Source: a virus
IMG/VR virus record: IMGVR_UViG_3300017971_000228
Location: 1 to 64,000 of that record
Direction: 5' to 3' (one strand)
DNA: 64,000 nucleotides
The translations under genes were made by a program, and so were the position numbers. Positions 1,223 through 17,572 of the stretch are shown piece by piece (the first letter of the stretch is position 1; every line of letters begins with the position of its first letter). The notes beneath the pieces were generated by a model that saw only the letters and a list, made by a program, of their open reading frames with translations, had not been told where the DNA came from and made no database searches.

Positions 1223-1415
1223 ACTGCTCTGGATGGCTTTGCACAGCGTGTTCCACATCGTGCTGATGATCGCGTTTCTGAAGCTGCTGGGCAAGGTATT
1301 GGACATGACGATGCTGGAGAAGCGGCAGAAGAAGGCGTGGAGGTGGATGCTGTTCTTGCTGGTGTTTATCTATGGGGTGAGCAAGATGTGGTTTGCGAGA
1401 ATGTGGCTAGTATGA
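1215..1415 (+). CDS. Small membrane protein
   Basis: Two hydrophobic segments; GGAGG RBS; overlaps neighbours. Confidence 0.6.
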   Translation: MDRLLWMALHSVFHIVLMIAFLKLLGKVLDMTMLEKRQKKAWRWMLFLLVFIYGVSKMWFARMWLV

Positions 1416-1426
1416 AAGGAGAAGGA

Positions 1427-1711
1427 ATGTACAGACAGGGTGACTTGCTGATAGTGCCAGTGGAGAAGATACCGGACGATGCGCGGAAGGCTGATGACAC
1501 GGTGCTGGCCTTCGGTGAACAGACGGGCCATACGCACAGGCTGGTCGGCGGCGAGGTGATGCTGACGAAGGATCAGGTCTACTTCACCGTGGCTATCCCG
1601 ACGCCACTGGAGCATGATGAGCATGCGACGCTGGTCATTCCGCCAGGGGACTGGAAGGTAGTACAACAGCGGGAGTACTACGGGGAGAGAGAACGTCCTG
1701 CGTATGACTGA
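1427..1711 (+). CDS. 'MYRQGD' His-rich cupin-like protein, usual partner of DUF6745 proteins
   Basis: MYRQGDLLI...GEQTGHTHRL...LEHDEHATLVIPPGDWKVVQQREY. Confidence 0.75.
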   Translation: MYRQGDLLIVPVEKIPDDARKADDTVLAFGEQTGHTHRLVGGEVMLTKDQVYFTVAIPTPLEHDEHATLVIPPGDWKVVQQREYYGERERPAYD

Positions 1712-2495
1712 AGCCTACGATTGGGTTGCTGAGCACATCATGGGGTTGGAATCTGGTGCTAAGTTCACAGGAACAGAACTGGCGGAACGACTCCGATCCC
1801 ATGATTTCAGCAAGCAATATGGTCCCACTGTTGACGGATTGATTCTGCATCGGGCTGACTGGGTAGGCTCATCAGGTTACTGGGACATGCGCGGCAGTTC
1901 ATGTTTCAATGGTGTCAGACTTGAGTTTGTTTGTGAACATATCAGATCCTGGGCGGCTCAGCATGTGACTCTGAGTCAACGAAGGACTGATGGGACTGAT
2001 GATGTTCGCCTCTGCCACGAATGTCACTTTTGGCAGAACTCCACTGATTCAGAGGGGAACAGTTACTGGCGATGTCATTGGCTCGCACAAGGCACCAGAA
2101 GGCCCCGAAGTTGGTGGGCTGCCCAGACACCAGACGGGGTACGTTCATGGGCAACTACGGAGGATACGCCTGGGTGTAGCGAGTGGCAGGGTCGTGGACT
2201 GCACGGCATCATCAATCAGATTGGCCAGAGATGGCACCGGCAAGACAGATCTGATCCCAGAGTTGTTGTCCGTGATCCGGATCGCAGACGAGAGTGGGGC
2301 GTGTTGGACTACAAGAAAGACTATATCCTGCTTGGCGTTAGAGGCTGGCGTCTGTTGGTCGCCAGGGATCCCAATGCTGGTGGTGGATGGCATGTTCTTC
2401 GGGTTCCACCGAATATGGAGACGGTAGAAGAAGCCCATGCATGGACCTTCGACATCAGCACAGATGATTATCACAAGATCAAGGAGCAGTCATAG
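1704..2495 (+). CDS. Cys/His-rich protein with DUF6745-like C-terminal module
   Basis: C-terminus WHVLRVPPNMETVEEAHAWTFDISTDDY; CHEC/RCH/GC motifs. Confidence 0.6.
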   Translation: MTEAYDWVAEHIMGLESGAKFTGTELAERLRSHDFSKQYGPTVDGLILHRADWVGSSGYWDMRGSSCFNGVRLEFVCEHIRSWAAQHVTLSQRRTDGTDDVRLCHECHFWQNSTDSEGNSYWRCHWLAQGTRRPRSWWAAQTPDGVRSWATTEDTPGCSEWQGRGLHGIINQIGQRWHRQDRSDPRVVVRDPDRRREWGVLDYKKDYILLGVRGWRLLVARDPNAGGGWHVLRVPPNMETVEEAHAWTFDISTDDYHKIKEQS

Positions 2496-2909
2496 GTGGT
2501 TACAAAGTGCTATAGCTGCAGTCACTATGGCCACATGGTGTATCCGCTGGCAGGTGGAGAGAAGTGGGATTGGGTATGTAACCTTTGGAAACATCCGAAC
2601 GGCCCAGAGGGTAGTTGCGAATGGCACAGTCGCAATGCAGATGCGCAATCTGCCCCTGTGACACAATCTGATCCGCGCGAAGTTCGGGAAGATCCTGAAA
2701 GACGCAGGCAGTGGGGAATCATAGATCATGATGAAGATTACATTCTCATGAGAGATATGGATCGGAGGTTCTTGCTGGCCAGAGACCCGCATCCGGCCCG
2801 GGAATGGCATGTCCTTCGCGTTCCGGCTGATATGCTAACGGTAGAGGAAGCCCATGCTTGGACGTTCGGTCTGGCAGAAGATGAGTATAGGGTAGAACGA
2901 GAGTCATGA
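2496..2909 (+). CDS. Paralogue of the preceding gene: Cys-rich N-terminus plus DUF6745-like C-terminal module
   Basis: SDPREVREDPERRRQWG...WHVLRVPADMLTVEEAHAWTFGL aligns with the C-terminal half of 1704-2495. Confidence 0.6.
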   Translation: MVTKCYSCSHYGHMVYPLAGGEKWDWVCNLWKHPNGPEGSCEWHSRNADAQSAPVTQSDPREVREDPERRRQWGIIDHDEDYILMRDMDRRFLLARDPHPAREWHVLRVPADMLTVEEAHAWTFGLAEDEYRVERES

Positions 2910-3988
2910 TTGATGAACTTCGCTCCTACATGGAACGCCTCTTCCCGCTGCCTCGCTACCTGACAGGCGAGCCCAACCGAGAGACGCTGCGGATCCTGCG
3001 CGAGATTGTGCCGTTGACCATGATAGAGTACCCCTCGGGCATGCAGCTCTACGACAAGTGGGTCGTGCCAGATGAATGGCAGTGGGGCGCCAGACCGCTG
3101 CCACATGAGCAGATTCTGGGAGACGACGGGCGCCTGGACTTGAGCAAGCACGACGGTCAGTTCGTCAAGGGGGGAATGACGGTTGGCGAGTACCGACTGA
3201 AGGGCAAGTATCCACAGGAGTATCTCGTCTCCACCTACATTTGCCACCCATCCACGGCCAACGACAACCTGAGCGGCATGGTGCTGACGGCATTCCTGGC
3301 GCGGGAATTATCAAAGCTGGAGTTGAACTATTCGTGGCGGTTCATCTGGGTGCCGGAGACCATCGGGGCCATAGCTTACTTGCACGAGAACGAAGCGGAG
3401 ATGCAGGCCATAGACTGCGGGCTGGTGGTGACGTGCGTGGCGGGGCCGGGGGAGATTGGGTGGAAGATGTCCTTTGAGCCAGGACACAGGCTCAACAACA
3501 TTGTCACTACTGTCGTGGATACGTGGGCGGGGGGAGATACCCGCTATCCCTATGACACCGACGGCTCTGACGAACGTCAGTACAGCAAGCCAGGATTCGG
3601 GATCAACTGCTGCTCCATTCATTCAGGCAAGTACTATGAGTATTCCCAGTATCATACCAAGGCCGATGATCTGAGCTTTATCAGCTACGAACGAATGGTG
3701 AGGATGCGGGATATTTATTTGCGTGTGTGCTTGGTCATGGACCTAGATTTGGTTTACCTAAACTTGCAGCCGATGTGCGAGCCGAAGCTGGGGGAACGGG
3801 GGCTGTACGGAGACGACACCGTAGACGCAACGCTGGCGCTGTGCCAGTGGGCGGATGGAACGAGGCCGTTGTCTGTCATAGCACGGGATACGGGGATAGG
3901 GTTTGACAAGCTACATGGAGCGGCGAAACGGATGGTGAGATTGGGATTGCTGAAGGAGGGGGCGGTATGCAAACATACGTTGAGATGA
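2906..3988 (+). CDS. DUF4910 / M28 aminopeptidase-like polysaccharide-biosynthesis protein with C-terminal winged helix
   Basis: LFPLPRYLTG, STYICHPSTANDNLSG, VPETIGAI, GSDERQY, YHTKADDL, CEPKLGERGLY. Confidence 0.88.
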   Translation: MIDELRSYMERLFPLPRYLTGEPNRETLRILREIVPLTMIEYPSGMQLYDKWVVPDEWQWGARPLPHEQILGDDGRLDLSKHDGQFVKGGMTVGEYRLKGKYPQEYLVSTYICHPSTANDNLSGMVLTAFLARELSKLELNYSWRFIWVPETIGAIAYLHENEAEMQAIDCGLVVTCVAGPGEIGWKMSFEPGHRLNNIVTTVVDTWAGGDTRYPYDTDGSDERQYSKPGFGINCCSIHSGKYYEYSQYHTKADDLSFISYERMVRMRDIYLRVCLVMDLDLVYLNLQPMCEPKLGERGLYGDDTVDATLALCQWADGTRPLSVIARDTGIGFDKLHGAAKRMVRLGLLKEGAVCKHTLR

Positions 3989-4269
3989 GGTATAGACCGC
4001 CTGGGAAACCGACATCTCCTGGCAAGATCATTCGAGATGAGTTGAAAGCCAGGGGGTGGACGCAGAAGTATCTCGCTAAACTGATGGGCAGGCCAGAGCA
4101 AGCTGTGAGTGAGATCGTCAATGCCAAGAAACGGATCACTCCAGAGACTGCAGTCCAGCTAGGGGAGGCATTCGGGACATCAGCACTGTTTTGGGCAAAC
4201 CTGGAGACTCGTTATCGCATGGATCTCTTAGCAGAGTACGAAAGGGCACATGCCCAAGACAGCCATTGA
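3967..4269 (+). CDS. higA: HigA-family antitoxin / XRE HTH (orphan)
   Basis: SPGKIIRDELKARGWTQKYLAKLMG...SEIVNAKKRITPETAVQLGEAFGTSALFWANL. Confidence 0.85.
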   Translation: MQTYVEMRYRPPGKPTSPGKIIRDELKARGWTQKYLAKLMGRPEQAVSEIVNAKKRITPETAVQLGEAFGTSALFWANLETRYRMDLLAEYERAHAQDSH

Positions 4270-5380
4270 CCTACTAGCGGACCAGCACCAACGCTCGCAC
4301 GGCATCCTCACCGGCTCCGGCACGTCTGCGCTCATATTGTCATTGTGGGCCCTGGGGCTGAGGGGCAAGACCGTCGCCATTCCCAACGGGGTATGCTATT
4401 CGGTGCCGATGGCGGTGTATCTGTCGGGGAACAAGCCGATGTATGTGGATCTGGACTTAGACACACTGAGCCTGGGCATCACCGAGTTTGAGAAGTGGCG
4501 AAGTTACGATGCCGTAATTGCGGTTCACAATTATGGGGCGCGGTGCCACATCGAAGCTCTGAACAGGTTCTGCGCAGATCACAAGGTGCCCCTTATCGAG
4601 GACTGCTGCGTTTCGCTGGGTGCCAAGGACATAGGCCATTGGGGCGACTTGTCGGTATTCAGCTTTGGCAGCGGCAAGATCCTGGACGCGGGTGGAGGCG
4701 GCGCGATTCTCGGGGATGACGCCAGGCTGCTCCAGACAGCGCACTTGCTCCAGCAGAGCTTTGGCCCACGGGACGGGATGTTCAACGCAGAGGCTGCGCT
4801 GTCCATGGCGCACACGGCGCTATACAACCAGCATTACGCTACATCCCGACGTAAGTTAGTGGTATTCAAGTCAATGGTGGATCTGATGGGACCAAGGACG
4901 CTATGGAGTCCGGGATTCATGCAGCAGCATGGCATTCTCTACGACCTGCTACCCAAGCTCTGGCATATCGTCGGGGAACGCGAACGCAAGTGGCAGTACC
5001 TGCATGATGAGCTGAAGGACGTGGTGGACATTTTCATTCCGCCCGAAGGCTCAGTTCATTGGCGCTTCAACTGCTTCATCGAGAAGGATCGCGACGGGCT
5101 GATGCATCATCTGCAAGCCAAGGGTTACAACGCCAGTTCGTGGCATGCGCCAGGGGATCTGTTTTTTGAGCAGGGTTCGAGATGCGGCAGTTTTGATTGG
5201 TTAGACCAGATGTTGGTTGAGAAACCCAACTACAATGATGCGTGGGCATATTGGCCCGTCACCGACTGGGTAGCAGATCACATTCTCAATCTGTGGGTGG
5301 ATCAGGCAGCGGATGAAGACTATCTGAAGGGGGTGGTGAAGGAGGTGAGGGGGTGGCACGCAACTACGACCAGCTCGTAG
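4250..5380 (+). CDS. DegT/DnrJ/EryC1/StrS family PLP-dependent sugar aminotransferase
   Basis: SGTSALILSL, VHNYG, LIEDCC, FSFGSGKILDAGGGG. Confidence 0.88.
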   Translation: MPKTAIDLLADQHQRSHGILTGSGTSALILSLWALGLRGKTVAIPNGVCYSVPMAVYLSGNKPMYVDLDLDTLSLGITEFEKWRSYDAVIAVHNYGARCHIEALNRFCADHKVPLIEDCCVSLGAKDIGHWGDLSVFSFGSGKILDAGGGGAILGDDARLLQTAHLLQQSFGPRDGMFNAEAALSMAHTALYNQHYATSRRKLVVFKSMVDLMGPRTLWSPGFMQQHGILYDLLPKLWHIVGERERKWQYLHDELKDVVDIFIPPEGSVHWRFNCFIEKDRDGLMHHLQAKGYNASSWHAPGDLFFEQGSRCGSFDWLDQMLVEKPNYNDAWAYWPVTDWVADHILNLWVDQAADEDYLKGVVKEVRGWHATTTSS

Positions 5381-5550
5381 ATCAAGAGACCTTCGCCGCC
5401 TGTGACTTCTTCCGTCTGCTGAAGGGCTGTGATACGAGGGGCCAATGGGAGCGGATGGACTTGGGGGAAGTCAGGGATGCGTTGGATCGGTGGATTGAGG
5501 CGAGGGAGGAGGTGGAGGGGTGGTCAAAGCAAGAACACTTGGGAAGCTGA
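5353..5550 (+). CDS. Hypothetical protein
   Basis: Packed ORF with GGAGG RBS. Confidence 0.45.
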   Translation: MARNYDQLVDQETFAACDFFRLLKGCDTRGQWERMDLGEVRDALDRWIEAREEVEGWSKQEHLGS

Positions 5551-5714
5551 GCGGTGTAGTTACGAAGATCAAGGAGATGCAATCCAGTGTTTGGGAGATG
5601 AAGGACACTATTGACAGCTTTGAGATGAAGCTGGAACTGGTAGGAGTGCATGAAAGACTGCAAAACGTGAAGGGAAAACTACTTGAGGTAATGGGCCTGA
5701 TAGAGCATGGCTAG
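5520..5714 (+). CDS. Hypothetical coiled-coil protein
   Basis: Packed ORF, helical pattern. Confidence 0.5.
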   Translation: MVKARTLGKLSGVVTKIKEMQSSVWEMKDTIDSFEMKLELVGVHERLQNVKGKLLEVMGLIEHG

Positions 5715-6024
5715 ATACTCCCTAAAGGATATTCCAATAGATGGCGTAGCAGTAACCGGCATAGCGCCCAAAGTACTCATCTACAAAGATTGCCGTCCTG
5801 GAGGTACTGCGACAGGCCAGTATGCCTATTGCGAGGGTTCACAGAAGTGGACGCTCTGGGACGAATGGATACGCATTCCGTACTTTCGCTTGCCAGGAGG
5901 TGAAATCATCTGGGGGCATCAGTGTTGGTGGACACTAGCTGACGGGACTGAAGGAACCGTGGAGGAAGAACAGGCCGCTTTGGAAGAACGCCTAGCAGAA
6001 ATGCGCGGGATGTTTCAGCCATGA
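5707..6024 (+). CDS. Hypothetical protein
   Basis: Overlaps both neighbours; GEIIWGHQCWW motif. Confidence 0.6.
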   Translation: MARYSLKDIPIDGVAVTGIAPKVLIYKDCRPGGTATGQYAYCEGSQKWTLWDEWIRIPYFRLPGGEIIWGHQCWWTLADGTEGTVEEEQAALEERLAEMRGMFQP

Positions 6025-6986
6025 GTTCGCGGTACTCCCTAGACCGAGTTCCCCTGGACAACGCCTGGGACGAGTTCGTTCAATCGTCTCCCGATCGCAC
6101 CATCTTCGCCCGCAAGCCTTACTTGGAAGGCGTGGGCGCTCAGCTCGGGACGTGGTTTTGCACCAAGGGGGAGCAGATCAAGGCAGCGTTCTTCGGTGTA
6201 GAGGGGGCGCATGGGCTAGAGGAAGATGACTTGGTGATCTATTCAGGCGTCCTTCACCAGAAGCCCGAGCCGGACCAGAATATCTCCCAAGCACGGTCTG
6301 ACAGGTTCAAGGTGATGGAGTTCATCGCGGCGGAGCTGCCCAAGACCTACAAAGTGATGGATTTTCAATTCAACACCAGCATCGTAGACATGCGTCCTTG
6401 GCTCTGGCATAACTATCACGAAGGCCCAAGGTATCAGGTGGAGGCGCGGTATACGAGCTACTTTGCGATTGGGCAGTATGGGTGGGGAGAGGAGGGTTCC
6501 AAGAGAGCGGGTGAGCAGATGAGCCAGAGCCGCCGGCAGCAGATCGCCTACGCGCAGCGGGACGGGATCAAGGTCATCCATACGAAGCCCTGCATAGACG
6601 CCTTCCTGAACTGGTACGGGCATACGGTAGAGGGGACGGATGCCTGGTTCGTATCACGCCTTCGGCACCTGCTGATTCATCTGGACAAGGTGAATCTGAC
6701 ACGGTGGTATGTGGCCCTGTCGCCGATGGGTGAGGGCAGGGCCTTGGCGGTCTTTGGTGTGGACGGGGGAAGGGCCTACTATCTCTGGGGAGCACGCCAG
6801 CCGGATCACAAGGACAGTCCGGCGGGCACGGAGGTGGTCTGGGAAGCGATGGTGGATCTGGCGAATCAGGGGATTCCGTGGACGGATTTGGAAGGCGTGA
6901 ACAGTCCGCGACGCGGATGGTTCAAGCTATCCTTTGGCGGAAGCCTGATTCCCTATTTCAGAGTGAGGTATGACGCATGCGTCTGA
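6021..6986 (+). CDS. GNAT/FemAB-like N-acyltransferase
   Basis: WDEFV, DMRPWLW, RAYYLWGA, DLEGVNSPRRGWFKLSFGG. Confidence 0.85.
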   Translation: MSSRYSLDRVPLDNAWDEFVQSSPDRTIFARKPYLEGVGAQLGTWFCTKGEQIKAAFFGVEGAHGLEEDDLVIYSGVLHQKPEPDQNISQARSDRFKVMEFIAAELPKTYKVMDFQFNTSIVDMRPWLWHNYHEGPRYQVEARYTSYFAIGQYGWGEEGSKRAGEQMSQSRRQQIAYAQRDGIKVIHTKPCIDAFLNWYGHTVEGTDAWFVSRLRHLLIHLDKVNLTRWYVALSPMGEGRALAVFGVDGGRAYYLWGARQPDHKDSPAGTEVVWEAMVDLANQGIPWTDLEGVNSPRRGWFKLSFGGSLIPYFRVRYDACV

Positions 6987-7174
6987 TGTGGGAGGTAACT
7001 GATTGGGAAAGATACAACTATCACCATGAATGGCCCTGGTGGGTACGTCGTTGTGATTACAACCCTGTGCGGAGAAGCGTTCTGTTTGCCAGCATGCCTG
7101 TTGCTTTGATCTGGCGGTTCACGCGATGGGTGCAACGTAGACTGTATAATTCAAGGGAGAATACTTGCGCGTAA
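6977..7174 (+). CDS. Hypothetical protein
   Basis: Packed ORF. Confidence 0.45.
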   Translation: MRLMWEVTDWERYNYHHEWPWWVRRCDYNPVRRSVLFASMPVALIWRFTRWVQRRLYNSRENTCA

Positions 7175-7377
7175 AGACTCGGGAATTTGAGGGCCAGCTA
7201 TGGATGCCGACAGGGCTTAAGTGTCCTGACTGTGGTATGGAGATGTGGGTTCAGGTTGATCCTGACTGTACTGAGCCAGGTGGGTGTCTGGAATGTGGGT
7301 ATCGCGGATGGAAGCATGGAGGATTCATGCCGAGCACTGAGGAGATGGTGGAGGAGTTTCTGAAATCATGCAAATAG
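7165..7377 (+). CDS. Small zinc-ribbon protein
   Basis: CPDC...CLEC. Confidence 0.55.
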   Translation: MRVKTREFEGQLWMPTGLKCPDCGMEMWVQVDPDCTEPGGCLECGYRGWKHGGFMPSTEEMVEEFLKSCK

Positions 7378-7850
7378 CACGACGCCAGTTCCTGAAGATG
7401 ATGGGGGCCTTCGGCGCATCATTGGCGGCTGAAGGCTTGGCACCCAAGGGGATTATCAAGCCAGCGGAGCTGGTGCTGCCCAAGGAGCCAACGGTGGTGG
7501 GGCCTATGCCAAGGAAAGGTGGTGGCATATCCAACTTCGTTGAGATAGGCTTGGCTGGGCATACAATCACAATAGAGAATCCCCTCATTACGGATTACAC
7601 AGTTGACGGAACTTTGTTGTACGTTGATCGGCCGTCGTATGCGACTGTGAACATAACGATGTTGGTAGATGGTGTAGCGTTATCTCTTGTAGATAACTGG
7701 GTCGCCACCAATATGCACGGCAAGGGGGGTATTCTTCGCATTCCACAGTATGCAGCAGAATGGCTCTGTGTTTTCTGTGGTTCGCCGCAACCGATGATTC
7801 GGACGCACTGCTCTCAGTGCGGAGGAGCTAGAGATTGGGTGGTAGAATAG
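7368..7850 (+). CDS. Twin-arginine signal-bearing protein with C-terminal zinc ribbon
   Basis: MQIARRQFLKMMGAFGASLAA; CVFC...CSQC. Confidence 0.7.
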   Translation: MQIARRQFLKMMGAFGASLAAEGLAPKGIIKPAELVLPKEPTVVGPMPRKGGGISNFVEIGLAGHTITIENPLITDYTVDGTLLYVDRPSYATVNITMLVDGVALSLVDNWVATNMHGKGGILRIPQYAAEWLCVFCGSPQPMIRTHCSQCGGARDWVVE

Positions 7851-7866
7851 ACAGAAAGGGATAACG

Positions 7867-8031
7867 ATGGATGCTCAAACTTCAGAGGTTACAATCACTA
7901 AGGCCAAAGGGGGCTACGTAATTGATCCGCTGACTGGCAAGCTAGAAGTCTATACTAATCCCGTGGTGGCCTTGGATCAGATCAGGGTGTTACTTGACAT
8001 GAGTGGGGTTGAAGTTAGGGAGAAAGAGTGA
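7867..8031 (+). CDS. Hypothetical 54-aa protein (not in ORF track)
   Basis: MDAQTSEVTITKAKGGYVIDP...VREKE*; AAGGGA RBS; stop overlaps the next start (GTGA). Confidence 0.55.
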   Translation: MDAQTSEVTITKAKGGYVIDPLTGKLEVYTNPVVALDQIRVLLDMSGVEVREKE

Positions 8032-8846
8032 CGCTCCCCATCACCGTCGCCGTCTGCACCAAGAACGCCGAGTCCTACATCGAACGCTGCCTGGAAGCGG
8101 TGATCGCCAATCAGCCAGCGCAGATCATCGTCGTGGACGCCTGCTCCGGCGACAAGACCTGGCACATCATCAAGGACTGGCCGGGGATCTTTCCCGTCGC
8201 CAAGTACGGAGTCGGGTTAGCGTCGCAGCGGCAGATCGCCTTGAGCTACACCAACCAGCCCTACTACGCAGCCGTGGACTGCTTCCACATCCTCTACCAA
8301 CGCTGCTTGCTGGACTTGATGCGCGAGATGGACTGGTACGGGTTCCAGGCCATCCAGGCCAGGGAGTGGCAGGTGCCCAGCGAGAACTGGTGGACCAACG
8401 CCCGCGCCAGTGCGAACTACGACATCACCACCATGCCGCACGTCGAGGAGACCAACATGGTGGGCAGGCCGGCGCTGTACCGAACCAAGGCACTGAGGGC
8501 CATTGGGGGCTTCGATAGCAAGTTCGACTTCGTGGGCGATGAAGACACGGACGTCAGTATCCGCATGGAGATGGCGGGCTATCGCATGGGGCACGGGACG
8601 GGCATCGCCAAGCGGCTCGACGAGCTGGATTATCATTCGGCCATGCGGAAGTTCGTCAAGTACGGACGAGGCGACGCCAGGATCGTTCGCAAGTACCCAC
8701 GGAAGCGATTGGCGATCATCCGGCACCAGCTGTGGACGTATCCCTGGAGGCGGGGGCTGAAGCATCTGGAGTATTGGCCCTACTACGCATTGTGCGGGTG
8801 GGTGAGGTTTGGAGCGATGATGAAGGAGTTGACACGTGGCGAATGA
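8028..8846 (+). CDS. Glycosyltransferase family 2
   Basis: ITVAVCTKNAESYIERCL, IIVVDACSGDKT, GGFD, EDTDVSIR. Confidence 0.9.
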   Translation: MTLPITVAVCTKNAESYIERCLEAVIANQPAQIIVVDACSGDKTWHIIKDWPGIFPVAKYGVGLASQRQIALSYTNQPYYAAVDCFHILYQRCLLDLMREMDWYGFQAIQAREWQVPSENWWTNARASANYDITTMPHVEETNMVGRPALYRTKALRAIGGFDSKFDFVGDEDTDVSIRMEMAGYRMGHGTGIAKRLDELDYHSAMRKFVKYGRGDARIVRKYPRKRLAIIRHQLWTYPWRRGLKHLEYWPYYALCGWVRFGAMMKELTRGE

Positions 8847-9078
8847 TCGGCTCTGGCTAGAGTGCAAAAAGTGCCATGAACGGATCATGCTCTACAAGTA
8901 CTATCCGAGTGGCGGTTACGTTCCGATTGATTCGATTCACAGCATCGGCGAGTTCATTCGCTATCATGCCCTGAATTGCTCAGGCGATGGATTGGACTTG
9001 GGTAGACCAGAAGATTGGCTTGGATTGGTGTCAGACTTGAAGGAGTACTGGGAGGGCTATGATGGGCGCGTGGTATGA
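8836..9078 (+). CDS. Hypothetical Cys/His protein
   Basis: CKKC...H...C; packed ORF. Confidence 0.55.
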   Translation: MANDRLWLECKKCHERIMLYKYYPSGGYVPIDSIHSIGEFIRYHALNCSGDGLDLGRPEDWLGLVSDLKEYWEGYDGRVV

Positions 9079-10099
9079 CCGACTGGCAGACACCGTTCCC
9101 GCATGGCTGGCAACGCTGAAGTCTCCCAACGGACTCTACAAGCACTCTGCTTCAGCCTACCACGAAGAATCGCTGGACGCGACGACGCTGGCGCTGGATC
9201 TGGAGCAGATGCTGAGTATGCTTCCATCGAAGTCCGGCGTCAAGTTCATCAAGTCCTGTCAGAACGGAACAACTGGTGAAGTACGGGAGCCGTTCTATCG
9301 GGAGCTGAGTGCCGAGGGACGCTTGCGCGAGATGGCGCATACCTACTCTGGTTGCCAGGTAGCGGCGCTGTTCATGGCGATAGACGCCCATCTGCAGAGT
9401 GAGTTCAAGTTCTACCGCCAGTTCCTATATCCAGGGGCGATCTCCCACTACATGATTCACAACATGCCTTGGGATACCAAACCCATGGGCGCGGGCAACA
9501 TGGTGGACGCGGCGGCGACCATGATGCGGTACAACGTCCGCATGCAGCACAAGCACGCCTACTGGCACGTCATCAATGAGATGTACCAGTGGCTAGATGA
9601 GCACCAAAGAACCTGGGAACACGGTTTCTGGGGCAGTGAGGCTGAGCAGGGCGTCAGCGGCGTAGTGCAAGCGGGCTATCACATATTGAGGGGACTGCAC
9701 TGGCAGGATGGGCGATACTATACGGACAATCACATGGAATCCACCGTCTTTGAGGCCATGGATCACCCATCAGCACCCAAGGACGCTTGTCACTACATGG
9801 ACTGCACAGTACTGGCAGAGCATTTGAGTCAGCTATGCCCTGGCTGCAAGATTGACAGGGAAATCGCGGAACTGGCAATAGAAGACCTAGAAGAGTTCCA
9901 TCGTGACGACGGCGCATTTTCATTCAGTCCCGACGGGGCCATAGACAACCACAACCTGTACGACGTGAGTCCTGGCAACCTGGAGTCCGACATCGTGGGG
10001 ACGGTGTTCTGCATGCAGGCGCTGAGATCGGCGCTGCATGTGCTGGGGGAGGAGGTGCCGTGGGGAGAATCAGCTACGCATGGAGTAAGGAGAGGATAG
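9059..10099 (+). CDS. Prenyltransferase/squalene-oxidase-repeat-like alpha/alpha-barrel protein
   Basis: Repeats such as LKSPNGLY, SCQNGTTG, EHQRTWEHGFWG, FHRDDGAFSF, SDIVGT. Confidence 0.55.
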   Translation: MMGAWYDRLADTVPAWLATLKSPNGLYKHSASAYHEESLDATTLALDLEQMLSMLPSKSGVKFIKSCQNGTTGEVREPFYRELSAEGRLREMAHTYSGCQVAALFMAIDAHLQSEFKFYRQFLYPGAISHYMIHNMPWDTKPMGAGNMVDAAATMMRYNVRMQHKHAYWHVINEMYQWLDEHQRTWEHGFWGSEAEQGVSGVVQAGYHILRGLHWQDGRYYTDNHMESTVFEAMDHPSAPKDACHYMDCTVLAEHLSQLCPGCKIDREIAELAIEDLEEFHRDDGAFSFSPDGAIDNHNLYDVSPGNLESDIVGTVFCMQALRSALHVLGEEVPWGESATHGVRRG

Positions 10100-10387
10100 A
10101 TGGCTGAAGACAAGTTCACTGCCCAAGACATTACGCATATCCAATTCTGGCGTTGGACCGTACTGGAGACGGAAACGAAGGCCGAAGCGATCACGCATCT
10201 CTACGTTCCCACGGATGCACCGCAAGAGGATCATGACAGAGCGGATGAGCTTTTGTGCATCATTCGTCCTGCGATTCAGGAAGCAGCAGATCGCGGGTGG
10301 TACTTTGAGACGTTCTACAAGATGAGTACGCCTCTGGAGCAGTTGAATGAAGAGTGGCAGGTTGTCATGAAACAGGAGGAGGGGTAA
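10100..10387 (+). CDS. Hypothetical protein
   Basis: Packed ORF with RBS. Confidence 0.55.
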   Translation: MAEDKFTAQDITHIQFWRWTVLETETKAEAITHLYVPTDAPQEDHDRADELLCIIRPAIQEAADRGWYFETFYKMSTPLEQLNEEWQVVMKQEEG

Positions 10388-10598
10388 TGCCTGATGCGAA
10401 GGTAGTGCTAGTCTGCCCGGAATGCTATGGGACGGACGTAGCGATTGAGGAACGGAAGTCGCCGGGGGGTGCGGGTGATGATGACGGAGCTACGCCAGAT
10501 CCGATTGCCGGGGTCTCTAGTAGGTGATGGGATGGTTTACTGGGTGGCGACGTGCAAGGAGTGTGGCTATGAAGTGGAGTGGGTGACGCGCAGGGAGG

Positions 10599-11192
10599 GT
10601 GGCGCTGGCGACAGCGACGTTCAGCAAGCAGAACTATGACGCCTATCGCGGCGAAGTAGAGTTCCTTGCGCCCTGCGTGGCAGCGGCAATCGTAGAAGTG
10701 CTGAATCCCAGCAGCGTAGTAGAGCTAGGCTGTGGGCTGGGGATCTATCTTCGAGAACTGGCAGAGTTGGGTGTGAAGGTACGGGGGTATGAGTTCTCGC
10801 CGGACGCTATCACCTTCACGGAAGCTCCGGAGGGGACAGTACTGCGGCACGATCTGACATCGGCGCTATTCGCTCACCGTCGGTACGACCTAGCGCTATC
10901 CAACCAGGTGGCGGAACACATCGAGGAGCGGTTCGCCGACCATCTGGTGCATCTGATGACGGACCTGAGCGACGTAGTGTACTGGTCGGCGGCAAGGCCG
11001 GGGGCCGGGGGGCAGCATCACGTAAACGAGCAGTGGCCACCCTACTGGCACAAGCTCTTTGGAAGGAGGGGATACCGACAGGACGAAGAGTTGGCAGAAC
11101 GAGTGAAAGCGGAGATCAAGACACGGTGCCCCCGCGTCGGGTGGGGGCACCACATCTATACCGATTGCATGATGTACGTCAGGGATTCATGA
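10599..11192 (+). CDS. Class I SAM-dependent methyltransferase
   Basis: VVELGCGLG, VAEHI, SAARPGAGGQHHVNEQ. Confidence 0.88.
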   Translation: MALATATFSKQNYDAYRGEVEFLAPCVAAAIVEVLNPSSVVELGCGLGIYLRELAELGVKVRGYEFSPDAITFTEAPEGTVLRHDLTSALFAHRRYDLALSNQVAEHIEERFADHLVHLMTDLSDVVYWSAARPGAGGQHHVNEQWPPYWHKLFGRRGYRQDEELAERVKAEIKTRCPRVGWGHHIYTDCMMYVRDS

Positions 11193-11899
11193 TGTCAGAT
11201 TATCATTCAGTGGCAGGCGTTGTGCCTGAGTGGGTAGAGACTAGGACAAGGAGGGCGGGATTGACGACCTGGAATGACTGTTATGAGGGGGGCATGGGGA
11301 ATCTGAGGTATCCGGATGAAGTGATCGTCCAGAGCATCCACCATCTGGGGCTTCATCCCTACCAGGCAAAGAAGGCGCTGGATCTGGGGTGCGGGAGCGG
11401 GCGGCATCTGGAGATGTTACACCGGCAGGGGTATGAGGTGTGGGCGGTAGACGGTGAAGAACGGGCGCTGAAGCTGGTACAGAGCCGCTGGGAGTTGCCT
11501 GGGCTGCATACGGTTCAGATGCGGTTCCCGCCGGTGAAGTTCCCCGACGGATTCCTGGATCTGGTGCTGATGGTGAACGTGCTGGAGCACAACGTCGCTG
11601 AGGATCGGGAAGAGTTAGTGCGGGAGGTGTACCGGATGCTGGGTAGTGGGGGCACCTTCATCTCACGCCATGCCGGGTGGACGGGCGCTCCACCGGACGG
11701 GGCCACGAAGCAGGTAGAGGAACGCAGTTGGCAGCGGGACAAGGATACCTTTGTCCATCTGTACACGGAAAGCGAACTGCTGGAGATCATGGTAGAGGTA
11801 GGATTCTCAGGAGTGCAGGTAGGTAGCCGGCGGGGGACCTACCCCTGGCTGAAGTGGGTGGATGAGAAGGAAATCTACGTGGTGGCCACCAAAGCGTGA
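11189..11899 (+). CDS. Class I SAM-dependent methyltransferase
   Basis: RYPDE, ALDLGCGSGRH, VLEH, EVYRMLGSGG. Confidence 0.88.
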   Translation: MMSDYHSVAGVVPEWVETRTRRAGLTTWNDCYEGGMGNLRYPDEVIVQSIHHLGLHPYQAKKALDLGCGSGRHLEMLHRQGYEVWAVDGEERALKLVQSRWELPGLHTVQMRFPPVKFPDGFLDLVLMVNVLEHNVAEDREELVREVYRMLGSGGTFISRHAGWTGAPPDGATKQVEERSWQRDKDTFVHLYTESELLEIMVEVGFSGVQVGSRRGTYPWLKWVDEKEIYVVATKA

Positions 11900-12978
11900 A
11901 CGAACGCGAACGCTTCCACGCAGTAATGCACTATGAGGCTGCGGACCGAGTACCCTTCTGGGAGGTGGGGTTCTGGGATGAAACGCTGATCCGGTGGTAC
12001 GAAGAGGGGTTGCCGATCACGGACAATTCCTGGGACCAACTGAAGACCTTGGGTCTGGACTGGTCCTTCGCCATGACCAACATTGCCATCGCTGAGTTCC
12101 CTCTGGCAGCGACGGAGGTGCTGGATGAGACGGACCAGCGGCAGCTATATCGGGATGAGTACGGCCGGATAGGCTGGCGACTGAAGGCACAGACAAGCAT
12201 GACGGAATTCGTCAGCTATCCGGTGACGGATCGAGAGAGCTGGGAGAAGGTACGGGAGCAGTACGTTCGGGTCTTCGACGCACGGGATCGCTACTGGATG
12301 GCGCACGCTATCGGCAGCAAGCGTCCCATCCCCATGGGGTTGACGGTAGGGAGCTTCTACGGGGAGCTGAGGGCCCTTCTGGGGTTTGAACGCTTCTGCA
12401 TCCTACTGTATGACGATGCTGACTTCATCAGGGAGATGCTAGCCTTCTTGACGAACGAGATGCTGCGACGGATGGAGGGAACGCGGCATCTGGAGTTTGA
12501 CTACGCCAAGTTCTGGGAGGACATGGCCTACAGCGGGGGGAGCTTCATGTCTCCGGCGATGTGGCGGGAGTTCCTGCAGCCCTGCTACGCAGCGGTAGCG
12601 GATGCACTACACGCACGAGACATCGACATTATCATGGTGGATTCGGACGGGGACGTGAACGAACTGATCCCGCTGTGGCTGGAGGTAGGCATCAACTGTC
12701 CCTTCCCCATGGAAGCGAGATACCATGACCTGATGGCGCTGAAGAAGCAGTACGGGCGAGAGTTGCGGATGTGTGGTGGGGTGAACAAGCAATCGCTGTA
12801 CGGCACGCGGGAGTGGATAGATCGGGAGGTGTTTCTGAAGACACGATACTTGATTCGGCAGGGGGGGTATATCCCAACGGTGGACCATGCCGTGCCGCCG
12901 CACGTAAGCCTGAGCAACTATGCGTACTTCCGGCGGGCGCTGGCGTTGGTGGCGGATGAGGTAGGGTGGGATGCGTGA
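11896..12978 (+). CDS. Uroporphyrinogen decarboxylase (URO-D/MtaA-like) family protein
   Basis: MNERERF..DRVP, WEDMAY...MSP, VDSDGD, GGVNK, GGYIPTVDHAVPP. Confidence 0.85.
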   Translation: MNERERFHAVMHYEAADRVPFWEVGFWDETLIRWYEEGLPITDNSWDQLKTLGLDWSFAMTNIAIAEFPLAATEVLDETDQRQLYRDEYGRIGWRLKAQTSMTEFVSYPVTDRESWEKVREQYVRVFDARDRYWMAHAIGSKRPIPMGLTVGSFYGELRALLGFERFCILLYDDADFIREMLAFLTNEMLRRMEGTRHLEFDYAKFWEDMAYSGGSFMSPAMWREFLQPCYAAVADALHARDIDIIMVDSDGDVNELIPLWLEVGINCPFPMEARYHDLMALKKQYGRELRMCGGVNKQSLYGTREWIDREVFLKTRYLIRQGGYIPTVDHAVPPHVSLSNYAYFRRALALVADEVGWDA

Positions 12979-13468
12979 GGTGACCAAGTTGCTACTCGTG
13001 CCGCACGCTAGTACAGACTGGAATGAGATGGGGAAGTATCAGGGGTGGCGTGATATCCATCTCAATCAGCGTGGACGGAAAATGGCTAATGAACTTGCAA
13101 GGCGACTAGCGTCTGAACCTATAGCGGCAATCTATAGCAGCGACCTAAGCCGAGCTATGGAGACAGTACGCGCGGTTTGGACCACTCACCAAGTACCTTG
13201 GTACGTTGAACCCAGGTTGCGAGAGTTCAGGCAGCCTAGCGACCAGCGGATGCTGGCAATGTGTGATCAAGTCTATGATGCCCTGGAATCCATTGCCCAG
13301 GCTTATGTAGGCATGACGGTGCTTGTCGTCATGCACGGTGGTCCGCTACGGGTGTTCCTGCGCAGGATCATCCTTGACTATGCAGATGAATGTAGGGGGC
13401 TCCAATGCCATGTGAATCGTGTAAACTACTTGGACGGCAAGTGGGAGGTGGTAACTCTGGATGAATGA
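12971..13468 (+). CDS. Histidine phosphatase (PGAM/CobC) family protein with degenerate RHG motif
   Basis: LLVPHASTDWN...YQG, IYSSDLSRA, RLRE, VVMHGG. Confidence 0.8.
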   Translation: MREVTKLLLVPHASTDWNEMGKYQGWRDIHLNQRGRKMANELARRLASEPIAAIYSSDLSRAMETVRAVWTTHQVPWYVEPRLREFRQPSDQRMLAMCDQVYDALESIAQAYVGMTVLVVMHGGPLRVFLRRIILDYADECRGLQCHVNRVNYLDGKWEVVTLDE

Positions 13469-13498
13469 GCAGCCGTATACCCAGCACGAGGATAAGGG

Positions 13499-13885
13499 GT
13501 GGTGAAGAAGGCTGAACGCAAATTGCTGTTCTCGGTAACGCGCAATGACTTCGAAGTGCAGACGTTTCGATCCGGTGGGCCGGGTGGGCAGTACCAGAAC
13601 AAGCGAGATTCGGGGATACGCATCATCCACAAAGCGTCTGGTGCTCGTGGTGAAGCGAGAGATCAACGAAGTCAGGCGCAGAACAAGAAGGCGGCATTCA
13701 GACGCATGGTAGCAACGCCAGAGTTTCAGACCTGGCTCAAGGTGCGGGCGGGAGAAGCTGCACTGACAGAGGGGCAGAAAGAGTTGCTGCGCCAGCGGAT
13801 GGAACGGGCAGTAGATAGGCAGATGGCAGGAGAGAACCTTTTGGTAGAACACAAGGTTGATGGGCAATGGGTGGTACAGACATAG
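13499..13885 (+). CDS. Peptide chain release factor-like peptidyl-tRNA hydrolase (ArfB/PrfH-like, GGQ)
   Basis: FRSGGPGGQYQNKRDSGIRIIH...RSQAQNKKAA. Confidence 0.88.
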   Translation: MVKKAERKLLFSVTRNDFEVQTFRSGGPGGQYQNKRDSGIRIIHKASGARGEARDQRSQAQNKKAAFRRMVATPEFQTWLKVRAGEAALTEGQKELLRQRMERAVDRQMAGENLLVEHKVDGQWVVQT

Positions 13886-13906
13886 ATAAGCAATGAAGGG
13901 GGAAGA

Positions 13907-14074
13907 ATGCCAACACTAGGACCGCTGGAACTGGGGATCATACTGGTCATCGCCATCGCCATCTTCGGCGTTGGTAAGATAGCCGACATCGGCAAGGAAG
14001 CCGGGCGCAGTGTGAAGGAGTTCAAGAATGCACTGCGAGAGACCAAGGGGCTTGATGACGTTATCAATGAATAG
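13907..14074 (+). CDS. tatA: Twin-arginine translocase subunit TatA/E (55 aa; not in ORF track)
   Basis: MPTLGPLELGIILVIAIAIFGVGKIADIGKEAGRSVKEFKNALRETKGLDDVINE: TM helix, FG hinge, amphipathic helix with EFK. Confidence 0.9.
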   Translation: MPTLGPLELGIILVIAIAIFGVGKIADIGKEAGRSVKEFKNALRETKGLDDVINE

Positions 14075-14085
14075 GGAGGACAACA

Positions 14086-14490
14086 ATGGATCGACGCGAA
14101 CTGCTCAAGAAGCTGCTGGGGGGAGCCGCTGGGGGAGTGATAGCCCTGGGCTTGCCCAAGGATATGGACATCGATACCTGCGATGAGGACGTGCTGGACT
14201 TACTGGCAGAGAAGATCGCAGAGAAGGTGGCAGAGCGGATAGGGCCCGCAGAGGATGATTTGATAGATGCGTCTCCGATGATGCCATACCCAGAGGAACC
14301 TATCATCACGATTAGAACGGTGCCATATCCACAGACTGTTACGGACAATTCAACTGGTTCGTATGGGATAGATTGGGGTACAGGCGGCAGTGTACTCTAT
14401 GACGACAACTCTACTGCGTGGAAGTTCTCAGGAAGTGGCGGGGTAGTATCGTGTTTGGGAGTAGCCGGATCAGCGGTTGATGTCTCCTAA
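14086..14490 (+). CDS. Twin-arginine signal-bearing protein
   Basis: MDRRELLKKLLGGAAGGVIALG; GGAGG RBS; directly after tatA. Confidence 0.7.
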   Translation: MDRRELLKKLLGGAAGGVIALGLPKDMDIDTCDEDVLDLLAEKIAEKVAERIGPAEDDLIDASPMMPYPEEPIITIRTVPYPQTVTDNSTGSYGIDWGTGGSVLYDDNSTAWKFSGSGGVVSCLGVAGSAVDVS

Positions 14491-15529
14491 CACCATCATC
14501 GCCATCCGCGCACGGACGCGGAGTTCACGGCTACACTCAAAGTGCCTGCAACCACTGGCAGGGAAGCCAGCTATCGTCCACGTAGGCGAACGGGCGGGGT
14601 TACTGCGGGACGTAGCGGATCGAGCGGTCTTCTGCATTCCTGACGGCAGGGCTGATGACGAACTGGCGGCGGTGCTAGGGGAACACTTCGGGGAGGATGA
14701 TTTCTACGCTGTCCACCGCGGACCGGAGTGGGACCCGGTGAGGCGGACGTGGGGCGCCATCGAGGAACACGAGGCGCAGATTATCATTGAGGGGCTGCAT
14801 GGGGATGCACCGCTGGCCTACATGGGATTCGTACGCCCGGCACTGCAACTGTTGGGACAACGCCCAGATCTGGACTGCGTCCGCTACGAGAACCTGGAAT
14901 GCCAGGTGACGATGGAGCATCTGGCCTGCCACGCCTGGCCAGTACGGCGAAGCTGGTGGGAGAAGACGGTCACGCTGAGGCCCAAGTCGGCAGGCTATCA
15001 GGAGCACCCCACGGCCTTCTTCACCGGCTACCCGGAGCAGTTCAAGGTGGGATTCCTGCCGGATGAGAACTTCTTCAGGCTGAGGCAGGACAGGTTTGGT
15101 CGGCCCTGGGATACCCGCTACTGCCTAGACTACCCGGAAGATCTGGTGTTCCTGGGAACGCTCTTCGAAGAGCTGTACAAAGACAAGCCCATCACGCTGA
15201 AGGAGGCAGTGCAATACGTGAACGCCCGTCCGCACCTACGGGCGCTGAACGCTTCCAGGGCAGAGTCGGTTCTGGTATACCCGACGGCGGTGCAGAAGCG
15301 GAAGTGGCGGCGGGCCTACGGGGAATGGGCGACGCCGGAGGGGTGTGAGCCGGTGCTGTGTGTGAACGGCAGCTGCTTCCTGGGGTGGGTGGATCCAGAA
15401 GACCGTGACAGGGACCAGCGACTGCATGGTTTGGACGGGAGCGTATGGAAGCGGGGGACGGTGAACTGTGAGTGCGGGGCGGGGCGAAGCGCAGTATGGA
15501 CGGGGGACAGGCGAGTCTGGCTGAAGTGA
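14477..15529 (+). CDS. SpsF/NeuA-like cytidylyltransferase with C-terminal Cys extension
   Basis: IIAIRARTRSSRLHSKCL, RGPEWD, GDAPL, QEHPT, YCLDYPEDL. Confidence 0.85.
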   Translation: MMSPNTIIAIRARTRSSRLHSKCLQPLAGKPAIVHVGERAGLLRDVADRAVFCIPDGRADDELAAVLGEHFGEDDFYAVHRGPEWDPVRRTWGAIEEHEAQIIIEGLHGDAPLAYMGFVRPALQLLGQRPDLDCVRYENLECQVTMEHLACHAWPVRRSWWEKTVTLRPKSAGYQEHPTAFFTGYPEQFKVGFLPDENFFRLRQDRFGRPWDTRYCLDYPEDLVFLGTLFEELYKDKPITLKEAVQYVNARPHLRALNASRAESVLVYPTAVQKRKWRRAYGEWATPEGCEPVLCVNGSCFLGWVDPEDRDRDQRLHGLDGSVWKRGTVNCECGAGRSAVWTGDRRVWLK

Positions 15530-15993
15530 ATGCGGGTCCGCTGACGGATGATCTGGTCGCTGAGAGGGTGATGGGGTGGCAGCGGAAGTGGGTATTGGCC
15601 AAGAGTCCCGGTGTTTTCTGGGGCGGACTCTATGCCACCAAGCTGGAATGCACCAACTACCAGCGGCGAAGCGGAATTGACAGAGATTATCATTCGACAT
15701 TGGTATGGGCAGAGGGGGATCGGATTGCAGCGTGGAGGGAGGAGTGGAAGCCGTCAACGGACGTGGGCGTGGCCATGCAAGCCGTTGAACACGTCCAGGG
15801 CTTGCCGTGTCTGGGGATAGGATTTGATCTGCATTCACGGGGAGATGTGAAGGTCCATCGGGAGAAGTGGACGGCTGAGATGAGCATGCCGGGGCTATAT
15901 CGACGGCAGGAATGGTGCGGTCATGGAGGTACGGCGGCGCTGGCCATCTGTCGTGCGCTGCTCGAATGGGCAGTATTCTTGACAGAACGCTGA
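15526..15993 (+). CDS. Phage ABA-sandwich (BC1872-like) domain protein
   Basis: DDLVAERVMGW...WKPSTDVGVAMQAVE...TAALAICRALL. Confidence 0.75.
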   Translation: MNAGPLTDDLVAERVMGWQRKWVLAKSPGVFWGGLYATKLECTNYQRRSGIDRDYHSTLVWAEGDRIAAWREEWKPSTDVGVAMQAVEHVQGLPCLGIGFDLHSRGDVKVHREKWTAEMSMPGLYRRQEWCGHGGTAALAICRALLEWAVFLTER

Positions 15994-16007
15994 TTCGGTG
16001 GTACTAT
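15979..16007 (+). promoter_or_regulatory. Sigma70-type promoter upstream of portal
   Basis: TTGACA-17 nt-TACTAT. Confidence 0.7.
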
Positions 16008-16032: not shown

Positions 16033-16080
16033 CTGAGATGTAAGGGCGACTCAGCACCATTGAGTCGCCCTTTTTTTGTT
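16033..16080 (+). terminator. Intrinsic terminator with competing antiterminator stem (leader copy 1)
   Basis: AAGGGCGACTCA/TGAGTCGCCCTT stem plus T7; alternative CTGAG/CTCAG pairing. Confidence 0.8.
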
Positions 16081-16096
16081 GCTTGAAGGATAACCG

Positions 16097-17572
16097 ATGC
16101 CAGATGAGACAAAACTGACGAGGGCCACCTTTGGCGAGTTGGGGGCGGCGGGCCTGAACCGCTATGGCGGCACGGTAGACAACGACTTCATCAAGGACCT
16201 GGAGCGAGCGACTTCCCGGTTCAAGATATTCACGGAGATGCGGCTGAACGATCCGGTCATTGGCGCGATTCTGTTCCTGGTGGAGCAGATGCTGCGCCGT
16301 GTCGTTTGGATGGTAGAACCTTCAGACCCGACGGATGACGTGGCCGTAGAACGGGCAGAGTTCATCGAATCCTGCATGGCAGACATGAGCCACACCTGGA
16401 ATGACTTCATCAGCGAAGCCATCACCTTCCTGCCCTACGGGTGGAGCTGGTTTGAACAGGTTTTCAAGAAGCGGCTAGGTCCAAAGCCGAAGAACTACTG
16501 CAAGGATCCCGCCCCATCATTGCACAACGACGGGCTAGTGGGCTGGCGCAAGTTCGCCGTTCGGGCGCAGGAATCCCTAGACCGATGGGACTTCGACGAG
16601 AACGGCGGCATCCAGGGCATGTACCAGCGACCAGCGCCGGACTACGTAGAGCGGTACATCCCTATTGACAAGTCGCTGCTGTTTCGGACGAGAGTAGAAC
16701 TGAACTCGCCGGAGGGGCGGAGTGTCCTGAGACACGCCTACCGCAGTTATCACTTCAAGAAAAATCTTGAGGTCATCATGGGCATCGGCGCGGAACGAGA
16801 TCTGGCGGGTATGCCGGTGATCTACCTGCCGCCGGGGGCCACGAAGGATGACTACGACCAGGCGCGGAAGGTCGTGGAGCGAGTAAGGGTAGACGAATAC
16901 TACGGACTTACCATCCCCGGTCCCAAGGCGACCAACATGGAGGCAGCCAGGGAGGGTGGGTGGTTGTTCGAGCTGGTCGTCAGTGGCGGGCGGCACTCCT
17001 TTGCCCTGGTGGAGATGCTGGAGTACTACGACCGACGCATGTCCATGGCCGTGCTGGCGCAGTTCATCATGCTGGGCAGCGGTTCGGTAGGCAGCTTCGC
17101 ACTTTCACGGGACCATTCGGAGATCTTCCTAAAGGCGCTGGAGGGGTGGGCGACGATGATAGCGGAGACCATCAACCGTCACGCCATCCCCAAGCTGATG
17201 CGCATGAACGGCTGGGATGAAGCACAGTCCCCGCAGCTGAAGCCTTCGGGTCTACTGAGAGCTGACATCGGCGAATTGAGTAACCTGATCATGGCCTTTG
17301 GCCAGGCGGGGTTGGATCTGCGTGACATCGAGGACCATATCCGGTCGCAGGCGAACCTGCCGCCCAGGACGGAAGAGGCGAAGCTGGTAGAGCCGATCAA
17401 GCCCATGAACCAGCGGAAGCCTGAAGTACCTGAAGAAGAAGAAGTAGAGAAGGCGGAACCCTGGCATCTGGTGGGGCGGATTCCGACGAGGGATGAGATT
17501 CTGGCGGGCTACCGGATCACGCCAGCGGATAGGGAACTGGTCGCAGCGGAGTTCGAGAAGGTGCTGGGGTGA
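16097..17572 (+). CDS. Phage portal protein (DUF935-like)
   Basis: 491 aa; EMRLNDPVIG, PYGWSWFE, SPEGRSVLRHAY, AERDLAGMP, GSFALS, INRHAIP. Confidence 0.9.
   Translation: MPDETKLTRATFGELGAAGLNRYGGTVDNDFIKDLERATSRFKIFTEMRLNDPVIGAILFLVEQMLRRVVWMVEPSDPTDDVAVERAEFIESCMADMSHTWNDFISEAITFLPYGWSWFEQVFKKRLGPKPKNYCKDPAPSLHNDGLVGWRKFAVRAQESLDRWDFDENGGIQGMYQRPAPDYVERYIPIDKSLLFRTRVELNSPEGRSVLRHAYRSYHFKKNLEVIMGIGAERDLAGMPVIYLPPGATKDDYDQARKVVERVRVDEYYGLTIPGPKATNMEAAREGGWLFELVVSGGRHSFALVEMLEYYDRRMSMAVLAQFIMLGSGSVGSFALSRDHSEIFLKALEGWATMIAETINRHAIPKLMRMNGWDEAQSPQLKPSGLLRADIGELSNLIMAFGQAGLDLRDIEDHIRSQANLPPRTEEAKLVEPIKPMNQRKPEVPEEEEVEKAEPWHLVGRIPTRDEILAGYRITPADRELVAAEFEKVLG

Follow-up and report, generated by a model that had tools for sequence, protein, structure and literature searches.

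The window, a 64-kb stretch of phage DNA, forms the first part of a 98,106-bp IMG/VR virus record that carries 123-bp direct terminal repeats, has a G+C content of 56.8% and looks complete. The record belongs to a tailed phage encoding a Mu-type portal, an XkdF-type protease, a capsid-E-like protein, an Amidase_2 endolysin, a serine recombinase and a CI-like repressor. Upstream of the portal gene the window holds a co-directional accessory operon for a sugar of the nonulosonic-acid type (Table 1). Its genes encode NeuB, a DegT aminotransferase, a FemAB/GNAT-like acyltransferase (GNAT), a family-2 glycosyltransferase (GT2), two methyltransferases, a URO-D-like protein, a histidine phosphatase, an RF-1-domain protein and a cytidylyltransferase. 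A strong hairpin resembling an intrinsic terminator, with a 13-bp stem and a T run, ends the operon, and together with a promoter-like site it parts the sugar genes from the portal-led structural operon.

Three further genes of the operon are the subject of this analysis: tatA, encoding a TatA of 55 residues; the gene behind it, encoding a twin-arginine (RR) protein of 134 residues (RR134); and a gene further upstream, encoding a twin-arginine protein of 160 residues that ends in a zinc ribbon (RRZn). The initial annotation had picked out an open reading frame with TatA architecture, a twin-arginine protein following it after 11 nt and a second one beginning MQIARRQFLK at 7368. All three observations were borne out, as the ATG of RR134 (14086) lies exactly 11 nt past the tatA stop codon and the frame at 7368 reads as a complete protein. 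Both tatA and RR134 are preceded by sites of the Shine-Dalgarno type, that of RR134 overlapping the tatA stop codon. A hydropathy scan of the sugar operon (155-15993) identified TatA as its sole membrane protein, and the same scan found no flippase, polymerase or ABC transporter there. Directly 5′ of tatA stands a gene for a stand-alone RF-1/GGQ-domain protein, which is not present at the corresponding position of the related phage contig L055 described below.

Table 1. Features of the window discussed in the text; L055 is a contig of a related phage
Feature	Position	Strand	Details
Accessory sugar operon, nonulosonic-acid type	155 to about 15993		
FemAB/GNAT-like acyltransferase	6021-6986	+	PF13480; 53% identical to L055 394-1347
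Small ORF with CxxC...CxxC pattern	7165-7377		
RRZn (P0001), 160 aa, candidate Tat cargo	7368-7850	+	begins MQIARRQFLKMMGAFGASLAA / MQIARRQFLKMMGAFGASLAAEG; MQIARRQFLK start
Family-2 glycosyltransferase	8028-8846	+	PF00535; 65% identical to L055 3043-3870; just 3′ of RRZn, likewise in L055
Small ORF with CxxC...CxxC pattern	8836-9078		
Small ORF with CxxC...CxxC pattern	10354-10639		
Stand-alone RF-1/GGQ-domain protein	13499-13885		PF00472, 60 bits; phrog_3122, 107 bits
Purine-rich Shine-Dalgarno-like site	13896-13905	+	AAGGGGGAAG, just 5′ of the tatA start codon; read from sequence
tatA, 55 aa	13907-14074	+	PF02416, TIGR01411; stop TAG 14072-14074
Shine-Dalgarno site GGGAGG	14074-14079	+	6 nt 5′ of the RR134 start, overlaps the tatA stop codon; read from sequence
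RR134, 134 aa, candidate Tat cargo	14086-14490	+	begins MDRRELLKKLLGGAAGG / MDRRELLKKLLGGAAGGVIALGLPKD; MDRRELLKK start
CMP-sugar-type cytidylyltransferase	14477-15529	+	PF02348; 60% identical to L055 7990-9036; overlaps the end of RR134, same order in L055
Promoter-like site	15979-16007		
Intrinsic-terminator-like hairpin	16042-16072	+	13-bp stem and T run; ends the accessory/sugar operon before the portal gene
Mu-type portal gene	16097-17572		
Endolysin, 498 aa	52549-54045		Amidase_2
Holin-like membrane protein, 112 aa	54052-54390		Phage_holin_4_1, E 0.0016, below cut-off

A minimal TatA without a phage TatC

The product of tatA matches the Pfam model TatA_B_E (PF02416) with 50.4 bits (E 1.3e-13; cut-off 21) and with 49.6 bits when the whole genome is searched, and so passes the profile check that had been proposed for it. 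Against the tatAE model TIGR01411 it scores 50.6 bits, about 3 bits and thus narrowly below the cut-off of that stricter model (53.9). At the head of the NCBIfam matches stand TatA or TatA/TatE models, and no match among those listed bears the name TatB. The best solved relative is Bacillus subtilis TatAd (2L16, E 3.5e-8), and other PDB matches are chloroplast TatA and Escherichia coli TatA. These NCBIfam and PDB matches assign the protein to the TatA rather than the TatB type, a distinction of less importance because in TatAC systems TatA performs both jobs (PMC13673990).

The layout is that of the family. A short transmembrane helix (about residues 7-21) leads through the FG hinge (F20 G21) into an amphipathic helix (about residues 22-45), which contains the FK motif (F39 K40) conserved in all TatA paralogues (PMC13673990); a C-terminal tail is almost absent. 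The hydrophobic core spans residues 4-22, the hydrophobic moment reaches 0.72 over residues 22-45, and the polar residue expected at position 8 is present as E8. In an alignment of 17 TatAs the invariant columns are G5, E8, F20, G21, G29, G33 and F39, all of which are kept in the phage protein. The phage TatA is an ordinary member of its family; the novelty lies in its being encoded by a virus, in its minimal size and in its link to viral cargo.

The gene is the only tatA in the 98,106-bp genome. A search for TatC (PF00902) returned nothing from the window, in agreement with what the initial annotation had reported, and nothing from the remainder of the record, while the same search detected TatC in 11 of 14 control genomes.

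A profile search separated five phage TatAs of 51-56 aa, scoring 114-122 bits, from all other matches, which scored 71 bits or less and measured 66-97 aa. The five come from separate contigs. In a tree built from the first 50 residues, which is only indicative because it has so few columns, they form one group (support 89/82) among TatAs of the Chloroflexota type. Identity to the phage protein does not exceed 59% among the nearest cellular TatAs, which come from Ardenticatenales, Anaerolineae and other Chloroflexota, and the cellular TatAs in the sampled loci are 58-108 aa long, compared with 55 aa in the phage. TatC is present in four of five Chloroflexota genomes carrying these nearest TatAs. 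This points to a likely host among the Chloroflexota, an Anaerolineae-like bacterium with a TatA-plus-TatC system, as judged from the Chloroflexota relatives only.

Two families of twin-arginine proteins

RR134 begins with the motif D-R-R-E-L-L-K-K, followed by a stretch of 15 uncharged residues and a lysine. Next come a conserved acidic amphipathic helix, LAEKIAEKVAER, and a variable tail rich in Ser, Thr, Asn, Gly and aromatic residues. Among 1.8 billion representative proteins it has three relatives (P0011, P0013 and P0015), which share with it an MDRRE(L/A)(L/I)K start, a Gly/Ala-rich hydrophobic stretch and the acidic helix, and differ from it in their tails. RR134 matched no Pfam or PHROG family, its AlphaFold model is poor (pLDDT 44.5), and no relative was recovered from the scan of viral contigs or from a metagenome scan with the RR134 family. 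The tail of RR134 (residues about 85-110) contains two D-N-S-T sites, TDNSTG and DDNSTA, and P0011 and P0013 carry N-T-T, N-S-S and N-V-T; with sugar genes on either side, such sites could, judged by pattern alone, be glycosylation sequons.

RRZn begins with A-R-R-Q-F-L-K and a short hydrophobic stretch that ends in a conserved L-x-A. Further on come the conserved segment PTVVGPMPRxGGG and a beta-rich middle; the C-terminus is a Cys4 zinc ribbon of the pattern WxCxxC-x10-CxxC, which resembles the RanBP2-type and L40e-type ribbons (PF00641; RBM10/L40e matches). Three relatives (P0019, P0020 and P0021; 51-59% identity) preserve the signal region, the PTVVGPMPRxGGG segment and all four cysteines, which are invariant in the family. 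The family as such has no Pfam or PHROG model, and the AlphaFold model of RRZn is poor (pLDDT 48.4). Searching the ESM Atlas with the RR proteins returned only zinc-ribbon look-alikes and unnamed viral clusters below 0.9, and an RRZn profile run against 401 Anaerolineae genomes gave only weak zinc-ribbon matches. The zinc ribbon offers a plausible reason for export in the folded state.

Compared with the twin-arginine consensus (S/T)-R-R-x-F-L-K, the N-termini read D-R-R-E-L-L-K in RR134 and A-R-R-Q-F-L-K in RRZn. All 11 RR proteins examined carry x-R-R-x-(F/L/A)-(L/I/F)-K within the first ten residues (residues 3-10), then 10-15 uncharged residues with a mean Kyte-Doolittle value of 1.1-2.3, and then a charge (K, E or D). 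The uncharged runs measure 10-12 residues in most family members, which is at the short end for Tat signals. On the Tat-signal model TIGR01409 (cut-off 16.7 bits) both window copies fall below the cut-off, RR134 with 14.7 bits and RRZn with 12.7, while three relatives of RRZn pass it: L055 RRZn-a (18.0), L055 RRZn-b (16.8) and P0019 (17.8). P0011, P0013, P0015 and the third RR protein of L055 gave no match to this model. Neither window protein has a textbook AxA site; possible signal-peptidase sites picked out by eye are L-x-A before E in RRZn and V/I-x-A before L/I-P in RR134.

A motif scan of all ORFs of the genome found the one at 14086 to be the only convincing N-terminal combination of twin arginine and hydrophobic stretch. 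The scan required an uncharged run of at least 12 residues and therefore missed the ORF at 7368, whose run is 11 residues long and which was added by eye. Taken together, pattern and conservation make the reading of these N-termini as Tat signals well supported, short of proof.

TatA and twin-arginine genes in a related phage

When metagenomes were scanned with the closest TatAs, L055 was recovered, 11.5 kb long within a 22-kb contig, together with its short duplicate L056; three further loci (L057-L059) are cellular TatA loci and were set aside. L055 is syntenic with the window. Besides the identities given in Table 1, its proteins are 60% (346-aa protein), 62-72% (methyltransferases), 66% (URO-D) and 67% (portal) identical to their counterparts. 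It encodes one TatA, 76% identical to that of the window and identical to NIV37753.1, which NCBI lists as a TatA from an Anaerolineae MAG.

The position of tatA differs between the two phages. In L055 the gene directly follows that of the GNAT-like acyltransferase, in another slot of the same sugar operon, within the order GNAT, TatA, RRZn-a, RRZn-b, third RR protein, GT2. Its stop codon overlaps the start of RRZn-a, the first of the three tandem RR genes, by 4 nt. The RR134-like gene of L055 has stayed between the URO-D and cytidylyltransferase genes, the same place as in the window. Each phage therefore has one TatA and both RR families, with tatA immediately upstream of an RR gene: between the two, tatA has changed slot yet stays directly 5′ of a gene for an RR protein. 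In the L055 assembly the RR134-like gene is broken by N bases at 7830-7850, and its C-terminal part is unreadable.

The accessory operon is undergoing reshuffling around the RR genes. The histidine phosphatase, the RF-1-domain protein and TatA are inserted between URO-D and RR134 in the window (12971-14074; L055 7647-7662). L055 has TatA, a second RRZn paralogue and the third RR protein between GNAT and RRZn (1347-3046), unlike the window.

For a TatA (P0005) and an RRZn homologue (P0019) alike, the source is a Logan contig with a listed length of 3,153 bp; the two probably share one contig, which would make a third case of linkage between TatA and an RR protein. Recurrence of the pairing is documented by one fully readable relative (L055/L056) and one inferred contig.

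Comparison of the window with L055 indicated purifying selection on TatA (dN/dS 0.28 at dS 0.82). The corresponding dN/dS was 0.25 for RRZn and 0.13-0.31 for the neighbouring enzymes.

A model for export of phage proteins through the host translocase

That the pairing of tatA with an RR gene is kept in a different slot of a related phage suggests that the phage probably tops up the host exporter for its own proteins. We favour, with a probability of roughly 60%, a model in which the gene encodes a stand-alone, miniaturised TatA of the TatE/TatAc type, which is co-expressed with phage cargo and would work with the TatC of the host. During infection the accessory operon would be transcribed, and RR134 and RRZn would fold in the cytoplasm, RRZn with its zinc. 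Their RR signals would dock on the host TatC receptor, and the phage TatA would enter the host TatA pool or form mixed oligomers that give rise to the membrane-weakening assembly. In this way phage cargo that suddenly becomes abundant could be exported without saturating the host translocase. In the known systems TatA outnumbers TatC and can do without its C-terminal tail, and the stand-alone paralogues TatE and TatAc aid particular substrates (PMC13673990). Adding TatA alone may fail to raise export capacity if TatC is limiting.

From the sequence, the initial annotation had offered several roles for the pair: that the phage boosts or hijacks host Tat export, or that it uses TatA with decoy RR peptides to jam export or depolarise the membrane. 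Boosting export on behalf of phage proteins fits the data. In two diverged phages tatA lies directly 5′ of an RR gene despite the different slots, TatA and the RR proteins are under purifying selection, and the phage has no TatC while relatives of the likely host have one. Jamming and depolarisation are not supported, as set out below.

An explanation that dispenses with function altogether is that the phage acquired tatA from a Chloroflexota host and retains it fortuitously, and that its place next to RR genes is without significance. The nesting of the phage clade among TatAs of the Chloroflexota type would agree with this, as would the lack of TatA in four distant relatives recognised by their portal (35-41% identity; all fragments). 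So would the scans of viral contigs with a single protein, a close alignment and a Chloroflexota alignment, insensitive searches that yielded no tblastn-confirmed locus of a TatA relative. A comparison of two TatAs with 50,697 phage records gave no tblastn match even at E 1; this says nothing about the absence of TatA from isolated phages because the low-complexity filter probably masks the hydrophobic helix. Against chance retention stand the recovery of the clade from five separate contigs, a dN/dS of 0.28 at dS 0.82, and a relocated tatA that again lies directly 5′ of an RR gene, now with a 4-nt overlap. We consider a mere passenger unlikely.

A role in lysis or membrane control appears quite improbable. 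Here surplus TatA would thin the membrane and make it leak, acting as a holin-like or timing device to which the RR proteins are incidental. TatA assemblies are indeed thought to act through membrane weakening (PMC13673990). The mark of a phage holin or lysis cassette is a small membrane protein beside the endolysin, and that place is taken by the holin-like protein, 38 kb from tatA, which argues against a lysis role. Across the whole array of plus-strand genes, TatA and this holin-like protein are the only products that are clearly membrane proteins. Moreover, tatA sits inside a sugar operon that has its own terminator, and its partner in both phages is an RR gene, not a lysin gene. The same location in the sugar operon, far from the endolysin and its holin-like neighbour, speaks against the proposed depolarisation of the membrane, which found no positive support. 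The endolysin itself has an unassigned N-terminal domain of about 300 aa before its Amidase_2 domain and no signal peptide.

It is similarly doubtful that the RR N-termini are something other than export signals, such as cytoplasmic docking peptides or short membrane-association segments with which TatA acts in a process unrelated to translocation. The uncharged runs of 10-12 residues and the scores of the window copies below the TIGR01409 cut-off leave room for such a role. However, the N-terminal x-R-R-x-F/L-L/I-K motif and the Gly/Ala-rich hydrophobic stretch behind it are conserved in three unrelated protein families of these phages, and three members pass that cut-off.

Least probable of all is a jamming role, in which the RR proteins would be decoy signals filling the host's TatC, alone or together with a dominant-negative TatA, and would thus block Tat export by the host: the short hydrophobic stretches, the lack of a clear signal-peptidase site, the sub-threshold signal scores and an unusually short and diverged TatA could be read in this way, but the mature parts are conserved under purifying selection, including the Cys4 zinc ribbon, which argues against decoys, the phage TatA retains the conserved residues and motifs of its family, and a decoy needs no co-encoded TatA.

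The favoured model, a TatA supplied by the phage for its own cargo, has partial precedents. Like E. coli TatE and B. subtilis TatAc, the phage gene is a single member of the tatA family away from any tatC, and its product shares with theirs the architecture of transmembrane helix, hinge and amphipathic helix and the FK motif. TatE and TatAc are believed to cooperate with a TatC whose gene lies elsewhere, preferentially for certain substrates or under certain conditions (PMC13673990). The phage protein differs from them in being viral, in its length of 55 aa compared with the 58-108 aa of the sampled cellular relatives, and in its coupling to candidate cargo genes.

In the B. subtilis phoD-tatAd-tatCd operon a tatA gene is likewise co-transcribed with the gene of its presumed cargo; TatAd is the nearest solved relative of the phage TatA, and the likely host phylum also appears to use TatA-plus-TatC systems. 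In a cargo-dedicated Tat operon, tatA and tatC both accompany the cargo, whereas the phage has tatA only, and its candidate cargo comprises two or three families of small proteins instead of a phosphodiesterase.

A viral parallel is the psbA gene of cyanophages, a phage-encoded subunit of host machinery. In both cases the virus provides one high-demand subunit of a host membrane machine and not the whole machine. The phage described here differs in that the process is protein export, not energy metabolism, and in that the virus brings its own substrates.

Use of the host's Sec pathway by phages is known, as is their production of holins of their own. A full-text literature search found no paper describing a phage-encoded TatA, and a 2026 review of the Tat system mentions phages in other connections only (PMC13673990). 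As far as the literature searched shows, a virus with a subunit of the folded-protein translocase and its own twin-arginine cargo is undescribed. If the favoured model is correct, the supply of TatA constrains Tat export in vivo to such a degree that carrying the gene is worth its cost to a virus. A natural minimal TatA of 55 aa that cooperates with a foreign TatC would then be useful for studies of TatA-TatC compatibility. The model would also suggest a class of phage proteins whose site of action, prior to lysis, is outside the infected cell.

A tentative extension, to which we assign a low probability, connects export with the surrounding sugar genes. The Tat system is the one route that tolerates bulky folded cargo. 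RR134 and RRZn might be glycosylated in the cytoplasm with the nonulosonic-acid-type glycan and exported through Tat as folded glycoproteins, redecorating the surface of the infected cell, for example to block superinfection. In both phages the RR genes are interleaved with those of the glycosyltransferase and the cytidylyltransferase, and the tail of RR134 is rich in Ser, Thr and Asn. The operon also encodes no flippase, polymerase or transporter of its own, and it is this feature that raises the possibility of Tat-exported glycoproteins. If they exist, they would represent a route of glycoprotein export without earlier description.

Small ORFs with CxxC...CxxC zinc-ribbon patterns are dotted through the sugar operon (Table 1); one shares 10 nt with the start of RRZn.
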